Source of the DNA: Escherichia coli
GTDB taxonomy: Bacteria > Pseudomonadota > Gammaproteobacteria > Enterobacterales > Enterobacteriaceae
NCBI RefSeq assembly: GCF_030013205.1
Contig: NZ_CP122648.1
DNA length: 64,000 bases
Strand: one strand, 5' to 3'
Shown: piece by piece, positions 6,348 through 19,824 of the stretch
How positions within the stretch are numbered: position 1 is the stretch's first letter
How the letters are laid out: each line of letters begins with the position of its first letter
Made by a program: the position numbers and the translations under genes
Notes under the pieces: model-generated
Seen by the model: only the letters and a program-made list of their open reading frames with translations
The model's database searches: none
What the model was told of the DNA's origin: nothing

Positions 6348-8114
6348 ATGAATAAATCCCGTCAAAAAGAGTTAACCCGCTGGTTAAAACAGCAAAGCGT
6401 CATCTCCCAACGTTGGCTGAATATTTCTCGTCTGCTGGGCTTTGTGAGCGGCATATTGATCATTGCCCAAGCCTGGTTCATGGCGCGAATTCTGCAACAT
6501 ATGATTATGGAGAATATTCCCCGTGAAGCCCTGCTGCTTCCCTTTACGTTACTGGTTCTGACCTTTGTACTGCGCGCATGGGTGGTCTGGTTACGCGAAC
6601 GGGTGGGTTATCACGCCGGGCAGCATATCCGCTTTGCCATCCGCCGTCAGGTTCTCGACCGTCTGCAACAAGCAGGGCCAGCGTGGATTCAGGGTAAACC
6701 GGCGGGGAGCTGGGCGACGCTGGTACTCGAGCAAATTGACGATATGCATGATTACTATGCACGCTACCTGCCGCAAATGGCGCTGGCAGTGTCGGTGCCG
6801 TTGCTGATTGTGGTGGCTATCTTCCCCTCTAACTGGGCTGCGGCGCTCATTCTGCTGGGCACTGCTCCGTTAATTCCGTTGTTTATGGCGCTGGTTGGAA
6901 TGGGGGCTGCCGATGCTAACCGACGTAACTTTCTCGCTCTTGCTCGCTTAAGTGGGCATTTTCTCGATCGCCTGCGCGGCATGGAAACATTGCGTATTTT
7001 TGGTCGTGGTGAAGCTGAAATTGAAAGTATTCGTTCTGCTTCGGAAGATTTCCGCCAACGGACAATGGAAGTGCTACGGCTGGCGTTTTTATCCTCCGGC
7101 ATTCTCGAATTTTTTACCTCGCTGTCAATTGCTCTGGTGGCGGTCTACTTTGGTTTTTCCTATCTCGGCGAGCTGGATTTTGGTCACTATGATACTGGCG
7201 TGACGCTGGCTGCGGGTTTTCTGGCCCTGATCCTTGCGCCGGAGTTTTTCCAGCCATTACGCGATCTCGGTACGTTTTATCATGCTAAAGCCCAGGCTGT
7301 TGGCGCAGCTGACAGTCTGAAAACGTTTATGGAAACCCCGCTCGCCCATCCGCAACGTGGTGAGGCGGAATTAGCATCAACCGATCCGGTGACCATTGAA
7401 GCCGAGGATCTGTTTATTACATCACCAGAAGGTAAAACGCTGGCTGGACCGCTGAACTTTACTTTGCCAGCAGGCCAACGTGCAGTGTTGGTTGGTCGCA
7501 GCGGTTCAGGTAAAAGCTCACTGCTGAACGCGCTTTCTGGTTTTCTCTCATATCAGGGATCGCTACGAATCAACGGGATAGAATTACGCGATTTATCACC
7601 GGAATCATGGCGTAAACATCTCTCCTGGGTTGGGCAAAACCCACAATTACCGGCAGCAACACTACGGGATAACGTACTACTGGCACGACCTGATGCCAGC
7701 GAACACGAGTTACAAACAGCGCTGGATAACGCCTGGGTCAGTGAGTTTCTACCGCTCCTGCCACAAGGCGTTGATACGCCTGTTGGCGACCAGGCTGCCC
7801 GCCTTTCCGTGGGGCAGGCACAGCGCGTGGCGGTGGCCCGAGCATTACTAAATCCCTGTTCGCTATTACTGTTGGATGAACCCGCTGCCAGCCTTGATGC
7901 TCACAGTGAACAGCGCGTAATGGAGGCGCTTAATGCCGCCTCTCTGCGCCAGACAACGTTAATGGTCACCCACCAGTTAGAAGATCTTGCTGACTGGGAT
8001 GTCATTTGGGTAATGCAGGATGGTCAGATTATTGAGCAAGGACGTTACGCGGAATTAAGTGTGGCTGGTGGCCCATTCGCCACATTACTGGCCCATCGTC
8101 AGGAGGAGATTTAA
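6348..8114 (+). CDS. cydD: Glutathione/cysteine ABC exporter CydD
   Basis: 588 aa, TMD plus ABC ATPase (GRSGSGKSS, LSVGQAQR). Confidence 0.95.
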   Translation: MNKSRQKELTRWLKQQSVISQRWLNISRLLGFVSGILIIAQAWFMARILQHMIMENIPREALLLPFTLLVLTFVLRAWVVWLRERVGYHAGQHIRFAIRRQVLDRLQQAGPAWIQGKPAGSWATLVLEQIDDMHDYYARYLPQMALAVSVPLLIVVAIFPSNWAAALILLGTAPLIPLFMALVGMGAADANRRNFLALARLSGHFLDRLRGMETLRIFGRGEAEIESIRSASEDFRQRTMEVLRLAFLSSGILEFFTSLSIALVAVYFGFSYLGELDFGHYDTGVTLAAGFLALILAPEFFQPLRDLGTFYHAKAQAVGAADSLKTFMETPLAHPQRGEAELASTDPVTIEAEDLFITSPEGKTLAGPLNFTLPAGQRAVLVGRSGSGKSSLLNALSGFLSYQGSLRINGIELRDLSPESWRKHLSWVGQNPQLPAATLRDNVLLARPDASEHELQTALDNAWVSEFLPLLPQGVDTPVGDQAARLSVGQAQRVAVARALLNPCSLLLLDEPAASLDAHSEQRVMEALNAASLRQTTLMVTHQLEDLADWDVIWVMQDGQIIEQGRYAELSVAGGPFATLLAHRQEEI

Positions 8115-11085: not shown

Positions 11086-11338
11086 TTGTTTTACCGCCTG
11101 ATGGGCGAAGAGAAAGAACGAGTAAAAGGTCGGTTTAACCGGCCTTTTTATTTTGTGATATGTATGAAGTACTTTGGAAGTATAAGTCCATAACTTGTCT
11201 CGATGTAGATATACTGCACAACTTGTTTACAGTATGAGCAAACAATAATTATCATTAAAATTCTTCTTGACCGTTTTACTCCAACTCCCTATAGTAGCGC
11301 CCCGTTGCCACCCATGAGGTTTGGTAGCAAAACAATTT

Positions 11339-11426
11339 GGTGAGGTGTCCGAGTGGCTGAAGGAGCACGCCTGGAAAGTGTGTATACGGCAACGTATCGG
11401 GGGTTCGAATCCCCCCCTCACCGCCA
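11339..11426 (+). tRNA. serW: tRNA-Ser (anticodon GGA)
   Basis: GGTGAGGTGTCCGAGTGGCTGAAGG...CCTGGAAAGTG...GGGTTCGAATCCCCCCCTCACCGCCA; long variable arm; anticodon loop CU-GGA-AA. Confidence 0.9.
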
Positions 11427-11588
11427 TATTCAAAGAAGAGCTCGTACGAAAGTAGGGGCTTTTTTTTCGCATATTGCACACACCGGGGGGATGAGAAGCC
11501 CCGACCGGGGTTCGACAACTGGCGCAGCCAGTTGGACAGACCACGAACACAGTGAGTGGGCTGCCCGCAGGGCGAGCGAAGCGAGTCA

Positions 11589-11611
11589 ATCCCCCCCTCA
11601 CCGCCATATTT
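11589..11611 (+). repeat. Direct repeat of the last ~23 nt of serW plus flanking TATT (aatccccccctcaccgccatatt)
   Basis: Near-identical copy of 11404-11430 located ~185 bp downstream; each copy is followed by a related A-rich/ctcgtacgaaagta segment. Confidence 0.8.
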
Positions 11612-11617
11612 AAAGAA

Positions 11618-11647
11618 AAACTCGTACGAAAGTACGAGTTTTTTTTC
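11618..11647 (+). terminator. Rho-independent terminator-like hairpin (ctcgtac-gaaa-gtacgag followed by T8)
   Basis: Perfect 7 bp stem, 4 nt loop, U-run; a degenerate copy sits at 11432-11458. Confidence 0.6.
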
Positions 11648-11889
11648 GCATTTTATCTGCCTGTACGGCAGTGAACTCAAATACTACACGTTTAGTCCGT
11701 TATTAATAAAGCAAAACCATCTCATTTTCCTGCTACCACCCTTTTTTATCCTTACCTTCCCGCAGCACTAATTATCAACAACTTACCATCATCATCAAAA
11801 AAAGGGTCTGAACCTCCTCCACCCCATAAACAAAAAGTCCGTAACCTCTTTCGAGATTACGGACTTCACCAACCTACCTGACAATTAGA

Positions 11890-14603: not shown

Positions 14604-14622
14604 GATAGATAACTATCATTTA
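14604..14622. repeat. Putative attL core (gatagataactatcattta)
   Basis: 17/19 identical to 25213-25231. Confidence 0.5.
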
Positions 14623-14691
14623 TATCATTTAGTTAATTAGTCTTTATTTTTCATTATGTTGCAAATAACAACCCCGTCAAAAACAGTGATA

Positions 14692-14714
14692 TTAACTACA
14701 CCATTAACTACACC
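14692..14714. promoter_or_regulatory. Putative integrase arm-type sites (ttaactacaccattaactacacc) followed by cgaacaa repeats
   Basis: Tandem 11-mer direct repeat; a near-identical copy lies at 25069-25091 just upstream of the int start. Confidence 0.45.
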
Positions 14715-15303
14715 GCTTCACGAACAATATCGAACAACCGCGAACAAAGATCAACACGCTTTAATCATTATCATTTTCCGGCTATCCGTCATGAAGCTGG
14801 TGGATGATCTGCGTGGTGATTTCCACCATTCAGAGCAGGGGCGGTCATCATGACCATGCCATAACAAAAACCCCATATTCGTGGTTTTTCTGTGTCGGGG
14901 CTATTCTGCTGTTGCCGTGCTGGTGGATATTCTCCGGTATGCGGCTCCCCATATCGGCATCAGGCCCACCAGCGTGAAGCGTTTTTCATTTTTCGCGGGT
15001 ATAAAAAATCGATGGGGCGGGCAGTCCTGAAGACGTCAGGGTACGGAGATTTGACCCGCCCCTCCCTGTGCATGAGCACAATAAGTAACCGAAGGCGGAA
15101 TTCCGCCCTCGGTACTTACATATGAGAAACGATATTTCTTCCACCGATACCCTTTATTTGGGTATTGCGAGTAAGCCCCAAAATCTGGGTGTTACTCTTA
15201 CTACCCAAACTACGGGTAGTTTCCGTAGTTTCATGGTCGAGTTGCAAATCTGCAACTCACCCACCAGCCAACGCAATTTTGCGTTATCGGGAATATCAGC
15301 AAG

Positions 15304-15591
15304 TTACCGCCGCAGTCGTTCCGGCTTCTTCCACTGGTAAGTATTTTTCGCGCTCTCCCTCCGTTGTTGAGAACGGCGACGGTATGCCAGCAACTCAAGG
15401 ACTCTGGTTCGTATGTTGCGCATATCCACGCCGTTAAGCTCAATACCATCACGGCGCATCACCTCAGCAACAACACGCGCGTAATTTTCAGCGGTGACTG
15501 TATCCGGCTGCGCGGCCTGTTCGTCAGCCAACTGGCTGATTCCACCAGCACAGCGGATTAATCGCAGTATTTCAGATTCGGTCATTATCAT
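15304..15591 (-). CDS. Hypothetical protein (95 aa), island packaging module
   Basis: ORF overlaps the terS-like stop by 4 nt; no recognisable motif. Confidence 0.45.
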   Translation of the reverse strand: MIMTESEILRLIRCAGGISQLADEQAAQPDTVTAENYARVVAEVMRRDGIELNGVDMRNIRTRVLELLAYRRRSQQRRESAKNTYQWKKPERLRR

Positions 15592-16073
15592 GCCTGTTTT
15601 GCGACCTCATTCACTACGTCATTTTTTACCATCCGGCTGATAATCTGATTACACAAATCGTCAATAATTGACTGCACTCTGTTTACTGCCATCGGTTTAA
15701 GCCCGGCATCACGTGCCAGAATATTGGGGAGTTTTGCCAGTTCCTCGCTTACGATTTCCCCCCATATAGCCATCTCTTTTCGCACATCATCGGCGGGTAT
15801 GAGTTGCGCCGTTTCCTGTTCGAACTTGAGGCGTTCACGTTCGGACTGATACCAGGCCTTACGGTCTTGTGGCTCCATTTCTTCCAGTGATGCCGGAACG
15901 GGAAGATCAAGAAAACAGGTCAGAATGTCAGTCACCCGATAGAGTTTCAGCTTGTCATGCCCTCCGGCTGGCTGGATGTTTTTCAGCCTTGCCGCCGCAG
16001 TCTGACGACATATTCCCGCTATCGCCGCCAGTTGATTAATGTTCAGCATCAGATTTTTCAGTTCTCGATCCAT
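15588..16073 (-). CDS. Phage small terminase-like protein (Nu1-like HTH DNA-packaging protein)
   Basis: Start placed at MDRELKNLM (GGAGCGGGT SD); N-terminal HTH LNINQLAAIAGICRQTAAARL; layout resembles lambda Nu1. Confidence 0.55.
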   Translation of the reverse strand: MDRELKNLMLNINQLAAIAGICRQTAAARLKNIQPAGGHDKLKLYRVTDILTCFLDLPVPASLEEMEPQDRKAWYQSERERLKFEQETAQLIPADDVRKEMAIWGEIVSEELAKLPNILARDAGLKPMAVNRVQSIIDDLCNQIISRMVKNDVVNEVAKQA

Positions 16074-16226
16074 ACCCGCTCCAGAATGTTTTAAACATGC
16101 ATCTTGCGAACAACTTTCAGAAGAGGTCAAAAAATGCGCTATATGTTGAGCATAAAACAAGCAAAATTAACATGCCAAAAATAAAAATACTTAAAATTCA
16201 ATACAATATGAAGATGATGATGACGA

Positions 16227-16306
16227 ATGAAAATGCAAAAACTAGCCTTTTTCCGCGCCGCTCCCGCCCCGTGGCAGACCACTCCACCGGGAGGACCCGT
16301 AAAAAA
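16227..16306. repeat. 80 bp conserved element, copy 1 (~92% identical to 18761-18840)
   Basis: atgaaaatgcaaaaac..ccgggaggacccgtaaaaaag; lies between the capsid terminator and terS. Confidence 0.8.
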
Positions 16307-16324
16307 GGCGGCTGTCGCCGCCCT
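16299..16324 (-). terminator. Rho-independent terminator after the protease-capsid gene
   Basis: Minus strand ggcggcgacagccgcc followed by ttttttta. Confidence 0.6.
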
Positions 16325-16329
16325 TGTTG

Positions 16330-18243
16330 TCATGCTCCACTCGATTTCAGTAATCCGCGATAATCGAGGGCCGCGACACCTGCATCTATGCGCACTTTCC
16401 AGGCGACACCATCAACAGTAAAGCCCACCTGCTCCTCAAGATATGGCGTATCCATACCATCAAGATAAGCGACTTCTATTGTGTCCATCCCCTTAGCTGC
16501 GGCTACATACCATTCCTTGCTATTGGCCTTATCAAGACGTGGCTCAACAATTACTTCTGCCATATCTTTCACCACGTTAATGATGCCGGGGTTCTGATTG
16601 ATAGTGCTCTCATCACCAACCGGAAAGACTGATGACGATGACAGAATGGCGCGACGCGCGGCAGATTCCAGCGCGGCAGGGACCAGAACAAAAGCAGGGG
16701 TAATATTCAGTGAGTCGCCGTTAGCATCCTCCTGGAGGCGCATCAGCTTACGGGCTTCATCAAGCCCCACCATGTCCATATCCTTCGCAATAAGATTTTT
16801 ATGATCGGCATGGAATAACGCTTTACCATCCGTAAATTTGCCGTTGCTGGTTAACAGAAGATAAACCAGATTACCTACTGTTCTGGCGGCCGCACGCCCC
16901 ATCGCCATGGGGATTGTAGTTAACTGGGTCAGGTCATCGTTGATAATGGCCTGACGGGTAACAGAAAAAATATTACCGTATGTGGCCAGCGCAATAGGTA
17001 CACCTTTATCGCTGGTGGTGATGTATTTATATTCCGCACCTTCCGGTACTTTATCCAGCTTTGAAAAACCATTCAGACCAACGCGCTTTGCTTCATGAAA
17101 GTTTGAAAGCGATCCGGTACGCGTCCATTTCTGGAACGTTTCGCCGCTGTCCTGCCAGCCTTTCAGCACTGATTTTTCAGCACCACCAGCCAGAATATGA
17201 GAAAAATCGCTGCTGCTGTGTGTGAAAGCTGCATTAACGACCTGCGAGCGATTTAAAAAACTGCCAACACTGATACCACGATCAGTTAGTGATGCCTGGG
17301 CCATTTCAAAAAGGCTCATCATCGCGTAAGGATTTCCCCGCTCTGGGCGTTCATACCCAAGACGAGAATAAAGCCCCTGACGAATTGCATCGCCTGTTAT
17401 GTTCCCGTTACCGGCATAAATATGAGTCGGGATATTTTTATTGGATGGCGTGGACTCGCGCCCCAGCTCGTTCAACAACTTTTCACGGGCCATCTCCGGT
17501 GTACATGATGCATCCTCCAGGCACGCCATTTTGATCCCGTCGTAACGACTGCCGAACAGGCTAAACACTTCACTTATTCCGTTGATGCGCTTCTGTTCAT
17601 TACCAGCAATATTGGCTGCTCCCTGTGGCGGGGTAATCATTCCTTTAATGGTTTCAGGCATGTGTGAAAAATCTCCTGTGCGTTTCGATTCAATTCGCGC
17701 CATTGCTGTGACAGATGGCAACAATTCATCAGCAAAACCGTGCTTAAGGCATTCTTTCCCGTCCATCCAGGTTTCATCTTCCAGCATGGCGGTAATTTCC
17801 TGTGCTGATTTGCCCGTTTTTCTGGCATAAGCAGGGACTAACACGGTTTCCACCTTATCCAGCAAATCAGCATAATCACGCATATCACCAGCATTTCCGC
17901 CAGAGATACCCCACGGCTTATGTATCATCATCATGGCGTTTTCCGGCATCACAACACGATCGCCAGCCATTGCGACAACCGAAGCCATTGAAGCCGCAAC
18001 ACCATCGATATAAACCGTAATTTCTGCCGGATGATTCCGTAACAGGTTATAGATGGCGATGCCTTCAAACACGTCACCACCTGGCGAATGGATCCGCAGG
18101 TCGATATGTGAGACATCGCCCAGGGCTTTCAGGTCTTCCGCAAACTGCTTCGCGGTAATACCGAAGCCGCCAATTTCTTCATAGATGGATATTTCTGCCG
18201 CTCCGCGAACACCCAGCGCCTTAATGGTGTACCAGTGATTCAT
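16330..18243 (-). CDS. Fused prohead protease (ClpP-like) / major capsid protein
   Basis: 637 aa; N-terminal ~200 aa with ClpP-like serine-protease motif (IHSPGGDV); C-terminal ~430 aa of major-capsid size and character. Confidence 0.7.
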   Translation of the reverse strand: MNHWYTIKALGVRGAAEISIYEEIGGFGITAKQFAEDLKALGDVSHIDLRIHSPGGDVFEGIAIYNLLRNHPAEITVYIDGVAASMASVVAMAGDRVVMPENAMMMIHKPWGISGGNAGDMRDYADLLDKVETVLVPAYARKTGKSAQEITAMLEDETWMDGKECLKHGFADELLPSVTAMARIESKRTGDFSHMPETIKGMITPPQGAANIAGNEQKRINGISEVFSLFGSRYDGIKMACLEDASCTPEMAREKLLNELGRESTPSNKNIPTHIYAGNGNITGDAIRQGLYSRLGYERPERGNPYAMMSLFEMAQASLTDRGISVGSFLNRSQVVNAAFTHSSSDFSHILAGGAEKSVLKGWQDSGETFQKWTRTGSLSNFHEAKRVGLNGFSKLDKVPEGAEYKYITTSDKGVPIALATYGNIFSVTRQAIINDDLTQLTTIPMAMGRAAARTVGNLVYLLLTSNGKFTDGKALFHADHKNLIAKDMDMVGLDEARKLMRLQEDANGDSLNITPAFVLVPAALESAARRAILSSSSVFPVGDESTINQNPGIINVVKDMAEVIVEPRLDKANSKEWYVAAAKGMDTIEVAYLDGMDTPYLEEQVGFTVDGVAWKVRIDAGVAALDYRGLLKSSGA

Positions 18244-18449
18244 TGCTCCCCCCCAGATGCAAAACCATTCTTATCAAGCCACGCGTTAACCGCGTGTCTG
18301 ACAATCTGCGCCGCACCTGGTAATGGTTGGTCAGGATGATGATTTATGTGGTCGATCCTGTACTGCTTAAGGCGCATAACGGTCTGCGCATCCAGATGAA
18401 CGGAACCACCTTTTACCTCGCCTGTGTTCAGGTCGTTAATACAATTCAC
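18240..18449 (-). CDS. Hypothetical small protein (69 aa), translationally coupled to the capsid gene
   Basis: GTG start with AAGAGGAAG SD; stop overlaps the capsid ATG. Confidence 0.5.
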   Translation of the reverse strand: MNCINDLNTGEVKGGSVHLDAQTVMRLKQYRIDHINHHPDQPLPGAAQIVRHAVNAWLDKNGFASGGEQ

Positions 18450-18549
18450 AGTAACTTCCTCTTACTGACTAAACTGCGCGCATTATTGATCGATAAAAGT
18501 GGTAGATAAACATATTTCTATCATAAAAATAGATTAATCAGATTCAGAC

Positions 18550-18575
18550 ACAAAAAAGCCGGAGAGAATCCGGCA
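18550..18575 (-). terminator. Rho-independent terminator-like hairpin (gccggattctctccggc followed by T6)
   Basis: Minus-strand stem-loop plus U-run ~100 nt upstream of the 69 aa ORF. Confidence 0.55.
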
Positions 18576-18760
18576 TAAATATCCCGCCATCTGAACACGT
18601 TTTGCACAGGCAACTCCATCTGGCAGGTGAAAAACAAATTTATTTATATATTTCAATTAATTGCAAACTGGTCTAATGACAGGGAGAAAAAAATATTGTA
18701 CAGGTGAAAACAGAAATAACTTTTAATTATCAATAAATTACTACACATGCTGCCGCCGCC

Positions 18761-18840
18761 ATGAAAATGCAAAAACCAGCCTTTTTCCGCGACGCTCCCG
18801 CCCCGTGGCAGGTCACTACACCGGGAGGACCCATAAAAAA
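18761..18840. repeat. 80 bp conserved element, copy 2
   Basis: ~92% identical to 16227-16306. Confidence 0.8.
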
Positions 18841-18858
18841 GCCGGATTGCTCCGGCTT
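18833..18858 (-). terminator. Rho-independent terminator after the SSB-like gene
   Basis: Minus strand gccggagcaatccggc followed by ttttttat. Confidence 0.6.
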
Positions 18859-18872
18859 CTGTTACTCGTTGC

Positions 18873-19295
18873 TTAAAACGGTATGTTATCCCCGTACGGA
18901 TCATCATTTCCCGCCTGTTGTTTTGCTCTGCTCAGTGCATCAGTAGCCTGCCCCTGTTGGCCTTTTTTGCCGCCCGGTCGCGCCGTTCTCGCACTGATTA
19001 CGCTGTCTGCGATAACCTGCCAGCCCTGCCGCGTCTCCCCGTTCTGTCCGGTCCACTGGCTCACCTGCATGTTACCCGCCACGCTCAGGAGTTCACCCTT
19101 GCGGTGCTTTGCCAGTGCTTCGGCCTGTCTGCCAAACGCCAGGACGGATAACCACATCGTCGCCGTTCCGTCATCTGCCTGGCTGCACGGAAGTGGGACC
19201 GCCATACTCGCCATCGTCATTTGTGTACCCTTGCTGGTGGTCTTTAACTGCGGGTCAGCCACCAGCCGCCCGTAAGCCGCTATCTGTGCTGTCAT
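18873..19295 (-). CDS. Single-stranded DNA-binding protein-like
   Basis: 140 aa; OB-fold-like N-terminus (GRLVADPQLK...), Gly/Gln-rich tail ending DDPYGDNIPF, resembling the SSB acidic tip DDDIPF. Confidence 0.65.
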   Translation of the reverse strand: MTAQIAAYGRLVADPQLKTTSKGTQMTMASMAVPLPCSQADDGTATMWLSVLAFGRQAEALAKHRKGELLSVAGNMQVSQWTGQNGETRQGWQVIADSVISARTARPGGKKGQQGQATDALSRAKQQAGNDDPYGDNIPF

Positions 19296-19537
19296 GCTGT
19301 CTGCTCTCCGGTTTTAACGTTGATGGTTGTCACCTGTTCCGCTTCGGCAATCTCCCGTTCTGTCAGCGTGGCAAAGTTTGCAGCTGCCGTTGTCATGAAT
19401 GAGCTAATCAGTTCGGGATGTGCTTTCGCATATCCTTCCCCGGCGTTGCGGTCGATGATTTTTATCGACACCCTTAACCAGTGTTCCGTCAAATCAAGGG
19501 CGTGCGATTGTGATTTTTTTGTGTGCTTCGCTGTCAT
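19292..19537 (-). CDS. Hypothetical protein (81 aa)
   Basis: ORF between the ori and the SSB-like gene; overlaps the ssb start by 4 nt. Confidence 0.45.
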   Translation of the reverse strand: MTAKHTKKSQSHALDLTEHWLRVSIKIIDRNAGEGYAKAHPELISSFMTTAAANFATLTEREIAEAEQVTTINVKTGEQTA

Positions 19538-19584
19538 AGGCTTTATCTCACAGCAGTAAATTAAAATTTTTGCGTTTTAACCCT

Positions 19585-19812
19585 TCACCTGTTCACCTTT
19601 TGATATTTTATCTTTTAATTCATAATGTTAAGGGGTGAACAGTTTCACAAAAACTATTCACCAACTGTTCACCACTGTTCACCCTTGAAGCTCAATAAAC
19701 AATCAAAAAGGTGAACAGTGAATAGTTTGGTGAACAGTTCATAAATAACTGTTCACCCTATAACATACTGATACAAAAGATATTTATGACAGGGTGAACA
19801 GTGGTGAACAGT
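19585..19812. promoter_or_regulatory. Putative replication origin: iteron cluster (at least 9 copies of GTGAACAG/CTGTTCAC) in AT-rich DNA
   Basis: Repeats at about 19587, 19634, 19665, 19676, 19710, 19729, 19750, 19794, 19803 in both orientations, immediately 3' of the primase gene. Confidence 0.65.
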
Positions 19813-19824
19813 TATTCCATAAGT

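Follow-up and report, generated by a model that had tools for sequence, protein, structure and literature searches.

Why should a mobile island that encodes neither a portal nor a large terminase subunit (TerL) carry a gene for a complete capsid polyprotein with its own maturation protease? The question is raised by a 64,000-nucleotide stretch of Escherichia coli DNA (contig NZ_CP122648.1; hereafter the window), in which a 10.6-kb island at positions 14609-25228 lies between clpS and yljB/cspD, bounded by 11-bp direct repeats of an attachment (att) core. One gene of this island encodes a 637-amino acid protein that joins a ClpP-like prohead protease to a capsid domain. We regard it as very nearly certain that this is a real and intact tripartite capsid gene (protease, linker or scaffold, and HK97-fold capsid) and that the element carrying it is a phage-inducible chromosomal island (PICI), taking the two propositions jointly. 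Our best overall explanation, to which, taken together with the mechanism proposed below, we give a probability of roughly 0.55, is that the late module of the island, comprising a small open reading frame (ORF), the capsid polyprotein, cohesive-end (cos) sites and a small terminase subunit (TerS), is a satellite-specific and long-diverged counterpart of the head and packaging module of Gifsy-2/mEp460-type phages, and that those phages are its helpers.

The capsid gene and its product

The 637-residue fusion, together with its boundaries, was first proposed from the letters of the sequence and a list of ORFs (the original prediction), and both are borne out by the ORF itself, by the NCBI annotation pipeline (PGAP) and by profile searches. 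The PGAP call has identical coordinates, and in E. coli KGu016, the island region of which is 100% identical to the window, the product is named 'ClpP-like prohead protease/major capsid protein fusion protein'. The whole protein scores 903.9 bits against NCBIfam NF045540, for which the curated cutoff is 475, and so belongs to that family; it also matches PHROG 133 with an E-value of 8e-284. Pfam recognises CLP_protease at residues 38-175 (E 1.6e-34) and Phage_capsid_4 at residues 335-634 (E 4.4e-54), and the N-terminal domain scores 228 bits against NF045542, 'head maturation protease, ClpP-related'. The IHSPGGDV motif that was originally taken as the mark of the protease is present at residues ~51-58, but this is the conserved G-G motif of the ClpP family and not the nucleophile; the catalytic Ser85 (in AASMAS) and His108 (in MIHKP) are both present and are nearly invariant across 77 diverse homologs.

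An AlphaFold model of the full-length protein (mean predicted local distance difference test score, pLDDT, 88.5) resolves three parts: a ClpP-like domain, a disordered tether with a helical linker, and a C-terminal domain. The linker helices occupy residues 210-228, 235-243, 249-262, 282-295 and 311-321, with disorder at 205-210 and 268-279. The matches listed by Foldseek for this model were all ClpP (template modelling score, TM, of 0.74-0.81 normalised to the target), and residues 281-637 were therefore modelled separately, giving a pLDDT of 93 and a predicted TM score of 0.88. The 50 best matches listed for this second model in the PDB comprise only HK97-fold capsids of phages and satellites, encapsulins and one phage-related protein, with a probability of 1.00, and they include the capsids of HK97, D3, SaPI1/80alpha and a capsid-forming PICI (cf-PICI). 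A PDB search with the sequence of the capsid half returned nothing beyond weak matches resembling Mu gpT. The model and its structural matches thus identify the C-terminal domain as an HK97-fold capsid, as had been supposed, and the check for an absent capsid fold came out negative. Nor does a frameshift conceal additional structural genes, since none of the island's other ORFs matches a structural PHROG family.

Such a fusion was known before, being curated by NCBI as NF045540 and annotated by PGAP. The phage family in which it serves as the normal capsid gene is very large, with 7,351 clusters at 50% identity (E<=1e-30), and the arrangement is not in itself unusual. The NF045540 architecture corresponds to the 'tripartite capsid gene' reported in phage Gifsy-2, and the island polyprotein is predicted to process itself into a mature capsid protein.

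Packaging genes and cos sites

The original prediction held the fusion to be the only structural gene of the island. A PHROG search of the island ORFs and the PGAP gene list found no portal, TerL, connector, HNH, decoration, tail or other virion gene, which upholds that statement, but the fusion is not the only late gene, and a TerS homolog and two cos sites had been missed. The TerS homolog, a DUF1441 protein, is 60% identical to TerS of mEp460 and 48% identical to H0025 of VT1-Sakai, the gene upstream of TerL, and at 161 amino acids it aligns nearly end to end with phage TerS proteins of 158-172 amino acids. Its C-terminal tail is satellite-specific and non-acidic; phage TerS tails are acidic. 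Identification as an Rpp protein was considered and rejected on both sequence and length: a PDB search (E<=1) did not link it to any solved structure of Rpp or Nu1, a result that was the same for TerS of the PICI EcCIIHE3034, and Rpp proteins fall short of TerS in length for lack of the C-terminal part that binds TerL, while the island protein covers almost all of TerS. The distinctive tail would fit replacement of the helper TerS or an Rpp-like heterocomplex, and either mode may apply.

The two cos sites are 94-nt direct repeats, 88% identical and 2,534 bp apart, that exactly flank the 69-amino acid ORF and the fusion gene. Read on the coding strand, each repeat presents a terminator, then a lambda-like cosQ, then a cosN-like site. 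In cos1, cosQ is ACGGGTCCTCCCGGTG (16285-16300) and the cosN-like site reads CACG GGGCGGGAGCGG CGCGG, with a predicted 12-nt end, GGGCGGGAGCGG, at 16258-16269; the predicted 12-nt end of cos2, GGGCGGGAGCGT (18792-18803), differs from it in the last base. The cos1 sequence is almost identical to that upstream of TerS in mEp460, and the similarity extends to the TerS start. In EcCIIHE3034, by comparison, the lambda cosN (GGGCGGCGACCT) adjoins lambda-type genes. Since that island pairs a lambda cosN with lambda-type genes and the window island pairs an mEp460-type cos with the fusion, we conclude that cos, capsid gene and TerS change together to match the head type of the helper. The cos repeats look like recombination joints for such exchange of late modules.

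EcCIIHE3034 (L003 among the loci compared, which are denoted by L numbers) contains further cos sequences: an mEp460-type remnant after ssb, a lambda-type cos by the lambda-type genes and a third, inverted lambda-type cos, at positions 7557, 9998 (+) and 10880 (-).

Probable helper phages and embedded relatives

In the phage collection, full-length relatives of the fusion have at most about 57% identity (~56% for coliphage proteins), and they are the capsid genes of the lambdoid coliphages mEp460, mEp043, mEp213, LLS, cdtI, VT1-Sakai, the Stx2 phages and CP-1639. The order in these phages is TerS, TerL, a 70-amino acid gpW-like gene, portal, fusion gene, decoration gene and lambda-like tail genes. 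The island has neither portal nor TerL, and both must therefore come from a helper, as originally proposed; the type of helper can now be named.

The most direct pointers are relatives of the island that lie within prophages. In E. coli strain 20 (L008), an island with a 95.6%-identical fusion and the same TerS and last ORF is inserted in the TerL gene of an mEp460-like prophage; the prophage's own copy of the fusion is very close to the mEp460 gene (synonymous divergence, dS, 0.03). Islands with the same late module likewise lie inside TerL of mEp460-like prophages at L021 and L031, and in Pectobacterium (L014) a related satellite is inserted in the helper's own fusion gene, as at L045 and similar loci. 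Among 79 IMG/VR loci with satellite-type alleles, 19 have a helper-embedded arrangement, and in none does the satellite allele stand directly downstream of a portal gene. A second fusion homolog is present in 51 of the 60 best island-type E. coli records, against a phage-type copy in ~39% of genomes overall, a comparison in which clonality is not accounted for. The matching cos, the TerS homology and the embedded sister islands together make Gifsy-2/mEp460-like lambdoid phages the probable helper type.

The capsid operon

The start codon of the fusion overlaps the end of the 69-amino acid ORF in an ATGA, accompanied by a GGGGGAG Shine-Dalgarno-like run, and the coupling of the two genes that was first proposed is thereby supported. 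Homologs of the small ORF lie upstream of the capsid gene in PICIs of E. coli, Klebsiella, Pectobacterium and Serratia, and in EcCIIHE3034. A Pfam search found no family for its product or for these homologs; a beta-alpha-alpha pattern is suggestive of a ribbon-helix-helix protein. The possibility that it is a gpW-like head-tail adaptor was discarded, there being no similarity to the 70-amino acid gpW-like gene of mEp460. PGAP, in several genomes, instead calls a 57-amino acid ORF on the opposite (+) strand at 18336-18509. The PHROG family, the ATGA overlap and the homologs in all related PICIs support only the minus-strand ORF, which PGAP calls in strain MS20653, and the plus-strand call is likely to be a wrong-strand annotation. 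The terminator proposed after the fusion is also present, as a GC hairpin (16307-16322) followed by a run of six T residues (16301-16306) on the minus strand; the terminator scan reported the same stem on the opposite strand.

A satellite-specific clade under purifying selection

Fusion homologs occur in about 40% of complete E. coli genomes, and their alleles are bimodally distributed, with 196 records at >=90% nucleotide identity and 2,062 records, of prophage type, at 60-80%. The same late module is found in company with other integrases and primases, at the tRNA-Ile/mug site in E. coli and at fis in Klebsiella and Serratia. Across E. coli, Klebsiella, Pectobacterium and Serratia the satellite capsid domains are 81-100% identical, yet they share 53-62% identity with any helper capsid domain, including that of the helper harbouring the satellite; phage copies are 68-79% identical among themselves, and the satellite domain is therefore at least as conserved as its phage counterparts. 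The clade also lacks ~30 amino acids of tether that phage copies have after residue ~210, has an insertion of 11-15 amino acids near residues 535-545, and has fixed substitutions concentrated in residues 282-400, which on the model would correspond to the N-arm and E-loop part of the fold. We do not rely on the ~30-residue deletion as a determinant of capsid size, because it falls in the predicted disordered tether.

Between island alleles the ratio of non-synonymous to synonymous substitution (dN/dS) is ~0.08, whichever of the three parts (protease, linker or capsid) is considered, and this is similar to the 0.07-0.10 of phage copies. Given purifying selection in all parts and a conserved clade of its own, the fusion is best described as a maintained, satellite-specific capsid polyprotein and not as a decaying capture, and it is very probably functional in the satellite. 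Whether related islands keep the fusion, the question posed with the original prediction, is thereby answered: they do so in several genera and under strong purifying selection.

Other arrangements occur around related genes. A further satellite fusion clade in E. coli-type PICIs (IMG/VR loci L086-L095) shares 62% identity with the window protein and 51% with that of mEp460; a homolog of the 69-amino acid ORF was detected in none of these ten loci, and a TerS match only in the helper-embedded L095. In Klebsiella PICIs at the fis site (L011/L012, 12186-14618), an 810-amino acid tape-measure-like ORF (TMP_2, Tape_meas_lam_C) directly follows the fusion in place of TerS, and in a circular E. coli sibling (L016, 8473-9173) tail-assembly gene fragments occupy the position after the fusion gene.

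Proposed function of the satellite capsid protein

In proposing how the module may work, we envisage a sequence of events that begins with precise excision at the 11-bp core to give a circle, which is shown for the sibling element L016, described below. Helper infection or induction would turn on alpA and int, and the gene content suggests that replication would employ the island's own primase, origin and single-stranded DNA-binding protein (SSB). Given the near-identical cos and the 60%-identical TerS, the satellite TerS would then bind cosB by cos1 and recruit helper TerL. In the last and least certain step, the satellite polyprotein would assemble on the helper portal into procapsids made of satellite protein; the protease domain would remove itself and the linker, and the shell, possibly smaller than the helper head of triangulation number T=7, would take up satellite DNA, with connectors and tails supplied by the helper.

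That the satellite builds its own shells is, in our estimate, a little short of an even chance, and that small capsids are formed is doubtful. The fullest form of the idea, to which we attach a similarly low probability, is a 'half capsid-forming' PICI, in which a single self-processing gene would make an all-satellite-protein shell on a stolen helper portal, yielding a T=3 or T=4 head for one 10.6-kb genome. What suggests such shells is the uniformity of the satellite clade, its specific indels and fixed substitutions, and the conservation of the protease and linker along with the capsid domain. By analogy, sister PICIs of lambda type have both shell proteins, E-like and D-like, and the 10.6-kb island unit falls within the range predicted for T=3 heads. 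We also count in its favour that small capsids are produced by PmCI172 of Pasteurella, in which a capsid homolog is encoded (PMC6092414), and that Ccm of SaPIbov5, a capsid-protein homolog of a Staphylococcus aureus pathogenicity island (SaPI), redirects capsid size (PMC8569155).

Several observations weigh against this account. In EcCICFT073, a sister PICI of lambda type, interference persisted when the capsid or the decoration gene was deleted, and only phage-sized DNA was packaged (PMC6092414); PICI capsid genes in general are reported as not needed for helper-assisted transfer (PMC10111431). For this reason the capsid remodelling that the original prediction took as implied by the missing portal and terminase does not follow from the gene content. 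Four island units amount to 42.4 kb, compared with helper genomes of 42.8-44.5 kb, and because of this match the packaging of concatemers in helper-built heads needs no satellite capsid. The helpers have a decoration-protein gene and the island has none. The promoter scan found no sigma-70-like promoter upstream of the capsid operon on the minus strand, and the overall counts in that scan were no higher than in shuffled sequences. Finally, a deletion of ~30 residues in what is modelled as a disordered tether need not alter geometry.

Much of this evidence is shared with the alternative that survives best, although we consider it unlikely: that heads are built by the helper only, with concatemers of ~4 units filling normal T=7 heads, and that the satellite polyprotein is a factor of interference or competition, or matters only with some helpers. 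It could interfere by co-assembling with or capping the helper capsid protein, by titrating the portal, or by processing the helper scaffold prematurely. This explanation accommodates EcCICFT073, which is found in phage-sized capsids with lambda and still interferes after capsid or decoration deletions; four units of 10.6 kb fit the genome sizes of the helpers, Ccm of SaPIbov5 is a minority component that redirects phage capsid assembly (PMC8569155), and purifying selection would be equally expected of an interference protein that must fold and dock. However, a co-assembling poison subunit should track the sequences of its helpers, whereas the satellite sequences are uniform from one genus to the next and share 53-62% identity with each helper, even the one that harbours them; conservation extends to all three parts and to the protease active site, beyond what a decoy would need; and the published negatives concern the lambda E-type capsid gene and laboratory helpers.

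Complementation is the next possibility, that is, the satellite copy mainly replaces or supplements the helper capsid gene and the window island has merely inherited it. Helper-embedded relatives do interrupt the fusion gene or TerL of their helper, and satellites carrying a homolog of the disrupted gene have been noted in the literature on helper-embedded PICIs (HE-PICIs; PMC10111431), but the same paper argues that excision restores the helper gene, making complementation unneeded. Islands in TerL have no copy of TerL, and 60 of the 79 IMG/VR loci are not embedded, nor are the window island, L009, L011 and L015; we therefore think this explanation improbable. The idea that the gene is a non-functional leftover, a captured helper late gene or defective prophage remnant drifting to loss, can appeal to late zones of PICIs that are dynamic and proposed to arise by prophage capture, and to decayed copies such as L010 (truncated beside an IS1), but it is already contradicted by the low dN/dS in every domain and is further opposed by full-length, intact alleles in roughly 190 complete E. 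coli genomes and several other genera, by a conserved operon with an overlapping upstream ORF, and by precise att ends and an excised sibling circle, leaving it scarcely credible.

As vehicles of gene transfer, Gram-negative PICIs are found widely, and a capsid gene is present in most of the reference elements; the published tests, in which the capsid gene was found dispensable, used only lambda-type genes with laboratory helpers. The swapping of the capsid gene along with cos and TerS, the separate and well-conserved satellite lineage, and the natural helpers that embedded copies name together make the role of the satellite capsid directly testable with a defined pair, an mEp460-type phage and the island. 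Were the 'half capsid-forming' scheme true, the island would stand between classical PICIs and cf-PICIs as a minimal one-gene HK97 capsid system, in a lineage conserved across Enterobacterales, and small shells built by the satellite would mean that one self-processing gene makes a DNA-packaging head, which would be of interest for engineered transducing particles.

Island borders and backbone

All of the sequence-testable features by which PICIs are recognised (Fillol-Salom 2018) are found in the island: an integrase gene at one end with att repeats, alpA, a primase gene with an origin 3' of it, a size within ~10-15 kb, cos with a terS/rpp-type gene, and the absence of lysis and tail genes. 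The positions of its features are collected in Table 1. The att core ATGATAGTTAT has two exact copies in the window, compared with 0.01 expected by chance, and is the core listed for the PICIs EcCIIHE3034 and EcCI18098 at cspD-clpS (Fillol-Salom et al. 2018). Just inside both ends (14691-14756, 25068-25206) are repeated motifs containing CGAACA and a 66-nt direct repeat, which are probably arm-type binding sites for the integrase or AlpA.

Table 1. Positions in the window of the island's late module, backbone genes and sites
Feature	Position	Strand	Basis
att core copy ATGATAGTTAT, clpS-side end	14609-14619	-	Exact repeat
93/95-aa PICI backbone ORF, last of island	15304-15591	-	PHROG 1561, E 1e-52
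Small-terminase (TerS) homolog, DUF1441, 161 aa	15588-16073	-	PHROG 141 'terminase small subunit', E 9e-57; PGAP start 16073
cos1: cosQ and cosN-like site, then cosB-like stretch up to TerS	16210-16300	-	Direct repeat and mEp460 match
Intrinsic terminator 3' of capsid gene, GGCGGC-GACA-GCCGCC + T6	16301-16322	-	Read from sequence
Protease-linker-capsid fusion ORF, 637 aa	16330-18243	-	ATG start; identical PGAP call
HK97-fold major capsid domain, residues 331-637	16333-17253	-	Pfam, model and Foldseek
Tether and helical linker/scaffold-like region, residues 181-330	17254-17703	-	Full-length model
ClpP-type prohead protease domain, residues 1-180, Ser85 and His108	17704-18243	-	Pfam, NCBIfam, Foldseek
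69-aa ORF, conserved PICI gene	18240-18449	-	PHROG 4934, E 5e-30; ATGA overlap with fusion start
Intrinsic terminator between cos2 and capsid operon	18558-18574	-	Scan match GCCGGATTCTCTCCGGC then TTTTTTGTGT
cos2: second cosQ/cosN copy after ssb terminator	18761-18854	-	94-nt direct repeat
ssb	18873-19295	-	TIGR00621, 59 bits (cutoff 54); with 81-aa ORF, PHROG 44 and PHROG 1231
81-aa ORF, replication module with ssb	19292-19537	-	PHROG match
Iteron/inverted-repeat cluster, GGTGAACAG units, 3' of primase gene	19589-19826	.	Repeat scan
P4-family primase/replication initiator	19825-21642	-	PHROG 864, E 6e-193
alpA-type excisionase/activator	23177-23386	-	PHROG 2790 'excisionase and transcriptional regulator', E 3e-17
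Tyrosine integrase	23806-25044	-	PGAP; Arm-DNA-bind_3 and Phage_integrase on L013 equivalent
att core copy ATGATAGTTAT, yljB/cspD-side end	25218-25228	-	Exact repeat

Excision is documented by replicon NZ_CP148328.1 (L016), deposited as the circular 'plasmid pZ1323HEC0475-3' of 10,790 bp, which is a sibling PICI that matches the window island at 91-97% identity over the portions that can be aligned. It contains exactly one att core, at the junction of both island ends, and since the single core joins these ends we regard it as the product of precise excision. This circle is without ssb, unlike the window island. A second candidate circle, the Logan contig SRR27339636_1382 (L013; 10,658 bp), was rejected, being an integrated island with 19-nt flanks whose ends do not overlap; that it ends 19 nt past each att core of an otherwise identical island suggests a mixed population in the sample, with and without the island or with the island excised.

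The L013 island also helped to identify backbone genes, its equivalent of the alpA-type gene matching PF05930 (Phage_AlpA) and its primase equivalent D5_N, DUF5906 and Pox_D5. The primase of the window itself scores 95 bits against TIGR01613, under the cutoff of 108.7 bits. The cluster 3' of its gene contains repeat families D4 and D18 and inverted repeats I1, I2, I7, I16, I22 and I23, and PICI origins are located immediately 3' of the replication initiator gene (PMC6092414); it is a probable replication origin. The last ORF of the island has 78% amino acid identity to the last ORF of EcCIIHE3034 and is found in most related loci; a PDB search with its 95-amino acid product found no relative. 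An Rfam scan of the island gave one spurious, sub-threshold match, to a human long non-coding RNA.

No prophage that might act as a helper was found in the first 50 kb of the window, which contains core genes from ftsK to artJ. A patch of low GC content at 44000-46000 (0.32, against ~0.51 around it), between ybjQ and ybjP, includes a pentapeptide-repeat pseudogene in a matching genome and is probably a separate, horizontally acquired remnant. Downstream of clpA, the tRNA-Ser/rtT repeat region (11339-11880) differs in length from that of KGu016, the tRNA starting at 11339 here and at 11162 there, and the number of rtT repeats therefore varies between near-identical genomes.

Comparison with known systems

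PICIs inserted at cspD-clpS are already known from publications or annotation, as are those that carry capsid genes or a CLP_protease gene. Among the late genes of Gram-negative PICIs, those for capsid proteins are the most common (21 of 29 reference PICIs), and PICIs 'bearing a CLP_protease gene' have been noted, including at the tRNA-Ile2 site (both PMC10111431). What the literature examined does not describe is that cos, capsid gene and TerS are swapped jointly according to the head type of the helper, and that the tripartite capsid gene has a conserved clade specific to satellites.

With cf-PICIs such as EcCIEDL933 the island shares PICI int, alpA and rep genes combined with capsid and protease functions. 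However, cf-PICIs encode in addition the portal, head-tail connectors, HNH, TerS and TerL, and tails are all that they steal, while the window island has the fusion and TerS only; lacking portal, connectors, HNH and TerL, it is not a cf-PICI. SaPIbov5 offers a different parallel, as a cos-type satellite encoding a homolog of the HK97-fold capsid protein of its helper, where Ccm alters capsid size and shape (PMC8569155; PMC5052747). Ccm is a capsid homolog only and works with the phage capsid protein, whereas the island gene adds a protease and a linker.

HE-PICIs and the PICIs at tRNA-Ile carry the same late module, inside helper TerL or fusion genes and at the tRNA-Ile site respectively. The window island differs in occupying a chromosomal intergenic site (clpS-yljB/cspD) and in its integrase, and is not itself an HE-PICI; the published account of these elements (PMC10111431) does not analyse the clade structure or function of the fusion. 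The tripartite capsid protein of Gifsy-2 and mEp460 has the same domain order, a ClpP-type protease, linker and capsid, with ~56% amino acid identity between the island and coliphage proteins, but the phage gene sits in a head module after the portal, while the island gene follows a PICI-specific small ORF with no adjacent portal and belongs to a separate clade.

EcCIIHE3034 and EcCI18098 share the att core and the cspD-clpS site with the window island. In EcCIIHE3034 the likeness extends through the backbone (int, alpA, icd, DUF4222, primase, small ORF and ssb), with 88-97% nucleotide identity outside the late module, and includes the small ORF before the capsid gene, the 93-amino acid last ORF and two cos sites, the last of which are also present in EcCICFT073. 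Between ssb and the last ORF the two islands cannot be aligned: EcCIIHE3034 has a lambda E-like capsid gene, a D-like decoration gene, a further ORF, a different TerS/Rpp-type gene and the lambda cosN GGGCGGCGACCT, and the window island has the fusion, the DUF1441 TerS and an mEp460-type cosN, GGGCGGGAGCGG. Since core, site and backbone are the same and only the late module is not alignable, we conclude that the window island is a Gram-negative PICI of this kind in which the late module has been exchanged.

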